Positions 28,318-28,884 of a DNA stretch of 59,842 bases are shown here, piece by piece; the stretch's first letter is position 1, and every line of letters begins with the position of its first letter. Source of the DNA: an uncultured Gammaproteobacteria bacterium (GTDB lineage Bacteria; Patescibacteriota; Microgenomatia; UBA8517). The stretch spans positions 24,655-84,496 of the forward strand of contig CAZIPM010000003.1 in the NCBI GenBank assembly GCA_964541395.1, read 5' to 3'. The notes beneath the pieces were generated by a model. It was not told the DNA's origin. It searched no databases and was given only the letters and a program-made list of their open reading frames with translations. The position numbers and the translations under genes were made by a program.

Positions 28318-28884
28318 TTACATCTCCCTTTTCAAGGGCTTGAGGGAAATATTAAACGAATACCACCAAAATAAAAACAACCAAATAATAGTTACCAGTA
28401 TGGCAATATAATTATGGAAGGTCATGGCGACAGTGCTGTTGTAGTGGTAATACAAATAAAAAATTGCGGTCAAGCGGAAGATATTGATCCAAAATGTCCC
28501 CAAGATACCCACGGTAAAAGTTTCAATTTTACTTTTCGTGGTGTAACTGCCGTTAAGACCGCTGTACATACTTGCCAAAATTAAAACCATGGATTGCCAG
28601 CCGATACAGCCGAAGGAAACATAAATGGGATCCAAACCTCCTGTTTTACCCACCAAAGTTACCATATAAGAACCCAGTTGTTGGTTAACGGTAGGAACAG
28701 AGAGGAATTTTAATAAGGTCCTGACCAAAGATATTTCGTAGGGAACAATAATATCCTGAATGGGTTTTAAAAAAATCAGCGGCTCAATTACTCTTACAAG
28801 AAGTTCATTTAAGGTACCAATAAAAGGAAAAAGCATTAAGATCACTACAAAGAATAAAAATATGTTTTTGCCGCCTTTTTTCAT
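28318..28884 (-). CDS. Minimal exosortase/archaeosortase-family protein (putative transpeptidase for giant 1)
   Basis: 188 aa with about 5 TM segments. FGCIGWQS fits the CxGxxS catalytic-Cys motif. WINIFRL fits the NxxR motif. FHNY supplies the conserved His. Cys-to-Arg spacing is about 45 aa. Its ATG overlaps the giant gene's TGA as ATGA (28881-28884). Confidence 0.65.
   Translation of the reverse strand: MKKGGKNIFLFFVVILMLFPFIGTLNELLVRVIEPLIFLKPIQDIIVPYEISLVRTLLKFLSVPTVNQQLGSYMVTLVGKTGGLDPIYVSFGCIGWQSMVLILASMYSGLNGSYTTKSKIETFTVGILGTFWINIFRLTAIFYLYYHYNSTVAMTFHNYIAILVTIIWLFLFWWYSFNISLKPLKREM

Follow-up and report, generated by a model that had tools for sequence, protein, structure and literature searches.

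A compact exosortase/archaeosortase-family protein encoded next to a giant protein with a VPE-type C-terminal tail

Exosortases and archaeosortases lie deep in the membrane, have a Cys/Arg/His triad and are putative Cys proteases or transpeptidases. Their partners are tripartite C-terminal signals, in which a motif abuts a transmembrane (TM) helix (10.1101/2023.06.07.544157; PMC6098224). ArtA of the ArtA/PGF-CTERM system, the experimentally studied member (PMC6098224), cleaves the C-terminal helix off its substrates, a step linked to lipid attachment (10.1101/2023.06.07.544157; PMC6098224). The closest working analogue of the locus described below is XrtG/Firmicu-CTERM (TIGR03110, TIGR03111). 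XrtG is a compact exosortase (187-position model) of a bacterium without an outer membrane, and its gene adjoins those of a dedicated CTERM-signal protein and of PgaC-like GT2 proteins (PMC12854382).

XrtX (NF046081), XrtY (NF046083), XrtM (TIGR04300), XrtH (TIGR04177) and ArtF (TIGR04293) are likewise curated compact families, with 150-168 model positions. An initial annotation of our locus had put the normal size of these enzymes at 270-500 aa; this background overstated the size novelty of the protein, because curated models of 150-187 positions exist (XrtG, XrtH, XrtM, XrtX, XrtY, ArtF, XrtF). Haft et al. are said to have described canonical exosortases, in 2006 and 2012, as much larger multi-TM proteins with many substrates per genome. 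The systems of XrtA/XrtB with PEP-CTERM (PF09721/TIGR02602) resemble our locus in their glycan/EPS-type setting; the name of the XrtA/XrtB model, 8TM_EpsH, refers to eight TM segments.

Sequence features and predicted fold of the 188-aa protein

The window (the whole stretch of DNA that was analysed, 59,842 nt) has a GC content of 37% and is an envelope/glycan locus. Its genes encode four GT4 proteins, a carbamoyltransferase, a PMT_2 protein, a UDP-glucose dehydrogenase, a PTPS_related membrane protein, a GH39 protein, an M23/LysM protein and a cohesin-domain protein. An ORF with an ATG start on the minus strand (28318..28884) encodes a 188-aa protein, which we assign to the exosortase family on the basis of TIGR04178, family-wide invariance, hhalign and an AlphaFold2 (AF2) model. 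Its translation contains FGCIGWQS (residues 91-98), NIFRL (residues 134-138, including R137) and FHNY (residues 156-159, including H157), and thus the motifs GCIGWQS, NIFRL and FHNY in the order in which they had been annotated. The codons of the putative catalytic residues are located on the minus strand at 28608-28606 (C93), 28476-28474 (R137) and 28416-28414 (H157). C93 is the sole Cys of the protein. From Cys to Arg we counted 44 residues, where roughly 45 had been estimated, and from Arg to His 20.

The exo_archaeo signature TIGR04178 (NCBIfam) matched the 188-aa protein with 36.4 bits (cutoff 23; E = 4.8e-9), aligning residues 88-175 with model positions 2-91 of 97. In contrast, a Pfam scan of the ORF at E up to 10 gave no match, PF09721 (Exosortase_EpsH) included. 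Thus, of the two model types proposed initially as a check, the NCBIfam signature was above its cutoff and the Pfam family was without a match for the window protein; PF09721 had a precomputed match in 14 of the 37 relatives described next.

A search of 5.8 billion proteins yielded 37 relatives of 172-207 aa. One of them was 99% identical to the 188-aa protein, one group showed 49-58% identity and another 32-41%. Two relatives carried the JGI name "exosortase/archaeosortase family protein", and a cluster look-up returned only the same generic name. TIGR04178 matched all 38 family members above its cutoff. In the 38-sequence alignment, C93, G95, W96, Q97, S98, N134, R137, H157 and W168 were invariant. 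Since the motif residues fall in invariant columns and the signature match is highly significant, the motifs of the ORF are not due to chance. When 1.84 billion cluster representatives (50% identity) were searched with the family profile, 640 matched at E up to 1e-3, 70 of these also at E up to 1e-30. Of the complete matches, nearly all were 183-220 aa long and aligned end-to-end with the profile. The compact size (approximately 180-205 aa) is kept across the family, showing that the 188-aa protein is no fragment.

The AF2 model, built on the 38 relatives, had a pLDDT of 85.7 and a pTM of 0.79. It contains helices at residues 2-33, 37-60, 96-109, 116-147 and 150-180 and a beta-hairpin at 74-88. 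The five long helices and the hydropathy peaks point to a polytopic protein and agree with the approximately five hydrophobic segments counted in the initial annotation. Helix 37-60 is amphipathic and bears a conserved IVPYE, and Lys/Arg clusters are present at the N terminus, in the loop 113-118 and at the C terminus. Searches with the sequence profile against the PDB (E above 0.3) and with the AF2 model in Foldseek (E above 1) returned only noise, and no solved relative was found.

With roughly half the length of XrtA- or ArtA-type enzymes, and with PF09721 lacking a match, the ORF could be read as what truncation has left of a full-size exosortase (a pseudogene), or even as a chance ORF with chance motifs. 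However, its length and end-to-end alignment are kept in dozens of clusters from three phyla, a 99%-identical copy exists beside the relatives at 49-58% identity, the AF2 model is confident and compact, and the TIGR04178 E-value is as low as given above. We regard the probability of this explanation as negligible; since length is conserved throughout the family, its truncated-remnant form can in practice be considered refuted.

A lower-ranked profile match, P0185 (281 aa), led us to the thaumarchaeosortases, which are approximately 340 aa long and contain PF09721. Using hhalign, the compact family was aligned with a thaumarchaeosortase alignment over 125 columns (probability 98.2%, E = 3.8e-14). 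C93, G95, S98, N134, R137 and H157 fell on the invariant C228, G230, S233, N270, R273 and H291 of the thaumarchaeosortases. The positional equivalence of Cys, Arg and His was thereby verified, with the thaumarchaeosortase profile (C228, R273, H291) used in place of ArtA or XrtA; equivalence to the characterised ArtA is indirect, by way of TIGR04178 and this alignment. Together with the TIGR04178 score, this register with the invariant positions of an archaeosortase subfamily of full size supports the assignment as exosortase/archaeosortase-like. Both ways in which that assignment could have failed, namely no match to any family model and Cys/Arg/His at nonconserved positions, were thus probed, and neither was observed.

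In its first column, the profile-profile alignment pairs residue 44 of the small protein with residue 178 of the approximately 340-aa enzyme, indicating that about 175 N-terminal residues are absent from the small enzyme, which has one TM helix instead. As read from this alignment, the small protein corresponds to the C-terminal, predicted catalytic half of the large enzyme, preceded by one N-terminal helix of its own. The earlier description as close to a bare catalytic core therefore holds: the N-terminal residues are missing in comparison to the approximately 340-aa enzymes, and the short length is family-wide.

Three giant proteins, a paralog and the named compact families

Giant 1 (28881..35291, minus strand) is 2136 aa long as listed, with an uncertain TTG start. 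Pfam/NCBIfam domains, TM segments and a comparison with its paralogs gave the order of its parts: transposase-type HTH domains, a TM pair, a module like GT2 processive synthases, further TM segments, an ectodomain of approximately 1200 aa and a VPE tail. The sequence of the tail (28884..29000, minus strand) is that of a tripartite C-terminal signal, FVPEK-SIWLFPIALFLP-KIIPGIKKKWILYRKGKIAIKR, consisting of a VPE motif, a hydrophobic helix and a basic tail; in context it reads TFTFVPEK-SIWLFPIALFLP-KIIPGIKKKW.... Giant 1 ends with AAA AGA TGA and the 188-aa ORF starts with ATG AAA, the 4-nt ATGA (28881-28884) being common to both. The overlap of the start codon with the TGA of the giant gene had already been annotated correctly. 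A promoter-like site (TTGACT-16-TATAAT, 11/12, a consensus match only) is located on the minus strand at 28249..28276, between the 188-aa stop codon and the next gene. Its position right after the stop codon suggests that the 188-aa gene is the last in the transcription unit of giant 1.

Two further giants are encoded on the same strand. Giant 2 (37578..44000, 2140 aa) has the architecture of giant 1 and is without an enzyme gene of its own; its tail, TVPENPFLLLGLYPILKKFASRFKKKKKIIV (37581-37673), reads TTVPENPFLLLGLYPILKKFASRFKKKKKIIV in tripartite form. Giant 3 (45925..52632, 2235 aa) consists, according to its domains and the paralog comparison, of HTH, GT2, ectodomain and tail. The tail sequence is TVPENPLLLLGLYPLFNKLIKRIKKKKKAVL (45928-46020), in tripartite form TTVPENPLLLLGLYPLFNKLIKRIKKKKKAVL. 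All three proteins end with [IT][TI]VPE, a hydrophobic helix with a conserved Pro and a K/R cluster. Among the 50 stop-to-stop ORFs of at least 100 aa in the window, the VPE-type tail is limited to the three giants. Their first approximately 900 aa are 54-58% identical, and their GT2 module is PgaC/cellulose-synthase-like. The ectodomains (approximately 1200 aa) are Ser/Thr/Asn-rich; those of giants 2 and 3 share 40% identity, whereas that of giant 1 is unrelated.

A paralogous compact exosortase of 196 aa is encoded after giant 3 (45331..45921, minus strand), a point missed in the initial annotation. It carries the motifs NCLGWQS, NIFRM and IHDY and was matched by TIGR04178 with 31.1 bits (cutoff 23). 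Its ATG is located 3 nt past the stop codon of giant 3 (TAA gtt ATG), and its core is 36% identical to that of the 188-aa protein. The tail of giant 2 is nearly identical to that of giant 3, suggesting that the 196-aa paralog probably serves giant 2 as well.

A polytopic membrane protein of 443 aa (52887..54218, minus strand) is encoded directly upstream of giant 3. Relatives of this candidate accessory component were found in 24 of 81 loci (see below), where they often adjoin the cassette. Neither a Pfam match (E up to 10) nor any similarity to the PTPS_related protein was found for the 443-aa protein. Other neighbours were considered and rejected. AAA_14/DUF4143 ATPases are encoded beside each cassette in the window but occurred in only 2-3 of the 81 loci and are thus not regarded as parts of the system; the PTPS_related protein, a spermine-synthase/TPR protein and BNR-like neighbours were dismissed as partners, since they are not conserved across the 81 loci.

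With both compact proteins and their tails at hand, we compared them to the named families. The best named match of the 188-aa protein was XrtX (20.5 bits, cutoff 170), a weak but colinear alignment of residues 51-178 with model positions 41-160 of 168; the best XrtX E-value among the 38 relatives was 4.2e-6. XrtY scored 12.2 bits (cutoff 160; residues 9-174 with positions 5-167 of 168) and XrtM also 12.2 bits (cutoff 125). XrtG (cutoff 102.75 bits) gave no match to the 188-aa protein, matched only 2 of the 38 relatives at E up to 0.01, and scored 14.4 bits with the 196-aa paralog (residues 46-181 with positions 44-178 of 187).

These nearly full-length, colinear alignments with XrtX and XrtY (188-aa protein) and with XrtG (196-aa paralog), together with the XrtG arrangement, in which a small exosortase is combined with glycosyltransferases and a neighbouring CTERM protein (PMC12854382), speak for membership in a named compact subfamily (XrtG, XrtX, XrtY, XrtM, XrtH or ArtF) with a cognate signal that has already been described. 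Such membership is unlikely, however, as all of the scores are far below the cutoffs and the best E-value of any named family over all 38 members was about 1e-8. In addition, when five isolated tails (49-56 aa) were scanned with the NCBIfam-curated CTERM models (PEP-, Firmicu-, VPEID-CTERM and others), none was matched at E up to 10, a result to be read with the caveat that HMMER filters may drop weak matches to short models. In the literature that could be searched, none joining "exosortase" with "Patescibacteria" was found, and that joining "exosortase" with "candidate phyla radiation" was on another topic. All 38 members match the generic signature only and none reaches a named Xrt/Art cutoff, in agreement with the proposal that they form a distinct subfamily.

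Pairing across loci and natural fusions

Scanning one genome per GTDB species revealed 289 stretches encoding a relative, of which the best 78 were analysed. These 78 loci belong to Curtiss-, Gottesman-, Woese-, Davies- and Chisholmbacteria and other Patescibacteria, to Anaerolineae/Chloroflexota and to Bathyarchaeota, some records being nominally labelled Gammaproteobacteria. The closest relative of the 188-aa protein among the scanned loci (53% identity) is encoded in a Curtissbacteria genome, which makes a patescibacterium of the Microgenomates group the probable source of the window, and several single genomes contributed two or three of the 78 loci.

The loci and the window together contain 81 family genes. 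We searched their surroundings with a crude regular expression for the signal, [VILMT]PE followed by an uncharged stretch and a basic cluster. The family gene was located directly after a signal-bearing ORF in 34 of the 81 cases, and in 19 cases a signal-bearing ORF was present elsewhere in the available DNA of the locus. Three family genes followed another member in tandem, two were fused to the signal in one ORF, and two were at a contig edge without upstream sequence. For the other 21, no signal-bearing ORF was seen, many contigs being short and the regular expression crude. Overall, 60 of 1292 ORFs were signal-bearing. Pairing of the enzyme gene with a signal-bearing ORF recurs in Microgenomates-group Patescibacteria, Anaerolineae and Bathyarchaeota.

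The aligned tails have the consensus [IT][TI]VPE-x-h-LLLL-x-LAPFLP-x-L[IV]-[KR][KR]. Val at position -1 and Pro at position +14, neither of which was imposed by the search pattern, were each present in 26 of 35 tails. A VPE tail precedes the relatives in loci L001, L002 and L003. Orthologs of the 188-aa protein (L004, L001) are placed after giant-1-type tails (TFTFVPEK...), in some cases separated from them by small inserted genes, and orthologs of the 196-aa paralog (L055, 73% core identity; L021, 69%) after giant-3-type tails (VPEFTTVPENP...). Enzyme similarity and tail similarity were correlated (Mantel r = 0.255, not reached in any of 2000 permutations), a correlation to which shared descent alone could give rise. 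Of the 81 loci, 51 contained the GT2 module (45-72% identity) and 23 the HTH module. Ectodomain sequences are hypervariable; each type was matched in just two loci.

In some relatives the components are naturally fused. P0114 (946 aa) and P0132 (1227 aa) have the order GT2, ectodomain, FPIEVPEN, TM helix, basic linker and enzyme, and their GT2 parts gave weak matches to TIGR03111. The Bathyarchaeota-type fusions P0083 (458 aa) and P0108 (474 aa) have the order enzyme, linker, TM helix, ectodomain and VPE tail. Judged from these arrangements, the fusions link the enzyme, tail and GT2 parts functionally.

The fusions also bear on the possibility that the 188-aa protein is a structural or regulatory partner of the GT2 module, e.g., a polysaccharide export or assembly channel, in which Cys/Arg/His would have another role. 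The GT2 module is the most conserved partner, the substrate would remain membrane-bound even after a cut, and tail cleavage in this clade is itself a proposal drawn from sequence. Nevertheless, the conserved tripartite tail is found exactly at the position of an exosortase signal, enzyme and tail similarities covary, and tail and enzyme occur in one chain in both orders. Furthermore, mutagenesis of ArtA, as cited in PMC6098224, supports a catalytic role of the conserved residues. A role solely as GT2 partner is therefore quite improbable, and we favour an enzyme that acts on the tail.

Adjacency, ortholog-stable pairing and natural fusions support the earlier idea of an enzyme dedicated to a neighbouring substrate. 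The word "single" in that idea is too strict: the window contains two enzymes and three substrates.

Proposed function and relation to known systems

We consider it likely that the 188-aa ORF encodes a full-length enzyme of a compact, unnamed exosortase/archaeosortase clade, which cuts the VPE tail of the neighbouring giant and its paralogs. The clade would consist of intramembrane cysteine endopeptidases, possibly transpeptidases. For the 188-aa enzyme, the most likely function would be to clip the conserved membrane-anchor tail off giant 1.

The layout of the fusions suggests that both ends of the enzyme are cytoplasmic, which would leave four membrane spans and place helix 37-60 on the outer face. 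The predicted topology would then be an N terminus inside the cell, TM1, the amphipathic helix and the beta-hairpin at the outer face, three TM helices and a C terminus inside. The Lys/Arg clusters at the N terminus, in the loop 113-118 and at the C terminus fit this four-span layout. C93 would be located at the outer end of TM2, while TM3 would carry N134 and R137 in its outer portion and TM4 would carry H157 close to its outer end, which would put the putative catalytic residues at the level of the outer leaflet, where VPE would sit on the substrate helix.

The following sequence of events can be envisaged. The 188-aa enzyme would be translated from the giant 1 message by way of the ATGA overlap. 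The tail of the substrate is predicted to place [IT][TI]VPE at the outer membrane boundary, to cross the membrane as a short Pro-containing helix (LLLL-x-LAPFLP) and to end in a Lys/Arg cluster inside the cell. A cut at or next to VPE would free the C-terminal end of the approximately 1200-aa ectodomain from the helix, and the freed end might be transferred to a lipid or glycan acceptor. The giant would stay in the membrane after the cut by means of the TM segments of its GT2 module. The 196-aa paralog would act likewise on giant 3 and probably on giant 2.

In a more far-reaching version, the cassette would be a self-contained machine. A surface glycan would be made by the processive GT2 synthase to which the giant ectodomain is fused, and the dedicated small exosortase, acting as a transpeptidase, would ligate the new C terminus (after VPE) to the glycan or a lipid. 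Ultra-small monoderm cells would thereby gain covalent protein-polysaccharide fibrils or attachment structures, and the module would have moved between bacteria and archaea. We offer this version as speculation that is unlikely to hold.

Exosortases are almost uncharacterised biochemically, and our PDB profile and Foldseek searches found no solved structure. Its sole Cys, its single neighbouring substrate and the natural enzyme-substrate fusions make the 188-aa enzyme about the simplest system for cleavage or transpeptidation tests and for structure determination. The data also point to the processing of giant hypervariable surface proteins fused to a glycan synthase in Microgenomates-group Patescibacteria, some Anaerolineae and Bathyarchaeota. 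In organisms presumed to live on other cells, the giants are candidate cell-cell attachment proteins. Dedicated models exist neither for the enzyme family nor for the VPE tail, and both are therefore annotated generically or not at all. In the searchable literature, we did not find descriptions of the compact clade itself, the VPE...P tail, the giant HTH-GT2 fusion as a substrate, several one-to-one cassettes per genome, the cis fusions or the spread over bacteria and archaea.

Compared to the known systems, XrtG shares with the compact clade, beyond its size and gene neighbourhood, a colinear match to the 196-aa paralog and to P0114. It differs in that the clade scores only 14.4-20.4 bits with the XrtG model (cutoff 102.75) and the giant tails are without a curated CTERM match. 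Moreover, GT2 and substrate are one giant polypeptide with N-terminal HTH domains in the window; XrtG occurs in Firmicutes, whereas the compact clade is found in Microgenomates, Anaerolineae and Bathyarchaeota; and the clade has several enzyme-substrate cassettes per genome (two or three loci in several genomes). XrtX, XrtY, XrtM, XrtH and ArtF are set apart by their enzyme models, all clade scores being 5- to 10-fold under the cutoffs. In comparison to XrtA/XrtB, with XrtA matches being negligible, the clade lacks about 175 N-terminal residues, has a VPE-x tail instead of the PEP motif and pairs one enzyme with each neighbouring substrate. Thaumarchaeosortase (TIGR04297) resembles the clade in the 125-column profile homology with Cys, Asn, Arg and His in register; however, thaumarchaeosortase and ArtA are of full size (approximately 300-350 aa), and their signals differ (PGF and others). 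Small size and pairing with a dedicated neighbour are already known for exosortases. The compact clade is thus a new flavour of a known protein-sorting system and no new kind of enzyme.

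Domain composition of the giants and fusions to the enzyme

The N-terminal ~340 aa of the giants, the predicted substrates that end in a VPE tail, carry transposase-type HTH domains of the IS481/IS630/IS3-like kind (e.g., 34270-35291), which lack a catalytic domain and are fused to the membrane GT2 synthase. In 23 related loci, this HTH module is also kept, and it may be a membrane-tethered DNA-binding regulator. The first ~900 aa of the giants are 54-58% identical. In contrast, giant 1 has an ectodomain that shows no relationship to the ectodomains of the other two. Each ectodomain has a single Asp-box (S-x-D-x-G-x-x-W; residue 1395 in giant 1, 1591 in giant 2, and 1679 in giant 3), and no domain was found by Pfam in these regions.

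Among the relatives of the 188-aa enzyme, P0114 (946 aa), P0132 (1227 aa), and P0106 combine GT2, ectodomain, VPE tail, and enzyme in this order in one chain. The reverse order, enzyme-ectodomain-VPE tail, was found in P0083/P0108 of Bathyarchaeota (loci L067, L079, and L081), and in P0061 the enzyme is joined to a class I methyltransferase domain. Tandem pairs of exosortase-family genes, the second directly following the first, are present at L006 (2750-4247), L029 (9878-11532), and L062 (1799-3131).

Junctions and flanks of the enzyme gene

At several loci, small genes have inserted at the junction of giant and enzyme or in the immediate flank of the enzyme gene. At L001 (4709-5942 and 6639-7037), these include a GIY-YIG gene and, downstream of the enzyme, a PDDEXK_3 gene; L003 also has a PDDEXK_3 gene (314-712). 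At L004 (885-2194), two ORFs on the opposite strand, both without annotation and perhaps encoding a toxin and its antitoxin, were detected together with another small ORF. The junction looks like an insertion hot spot. In the window, the 75-nt gap between the stop codon of the 188-aa enzyme and the ATG of the next gene contains a promoter-like site with the near-consensus sequence TTGACT-16-TATAAT (28249-28276, minus strand).

Neighboring genes and taxon labels

Beside the giant cassettes, the window has four genes for ATPases of the AAA_14 + DUF4143 type (26983-28242, 36294-37421, and 58312-59628 on the minus strand; 44230-45345 on the plus strand). Since relatives occur in only 2-3 of the 81 related loci, these ATPases were rejected as conserved partners. 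Directly 5' of giant 3, a gene for a polytopic membrane protein of 443 aa is located (52887-54218, minus strand), for which the Pfam search gave no match. Its relatives were found in 24 of the 81 loci, often adjoining the cassette (e.g., L074, L076, and L042), and it may be a third part of the exosortase/giant system.

Patescibacteria-type cassettes that combine IPENLLGLLPLGLLLPK tails with this GT2 module were found in many records titled 'uncultured Gammaproteobacteria' (L012, L018, L020, L033, L034, and others). These MAGs may carry incorrect taxon labels.

The window also encodes a 1098-aa membrane protein (1316-4612, minus strand), with relatives in only 6 of the 81 loci. It contains a PTPS_related (PF10131) domain, a family that has been linked to XrtG loci.
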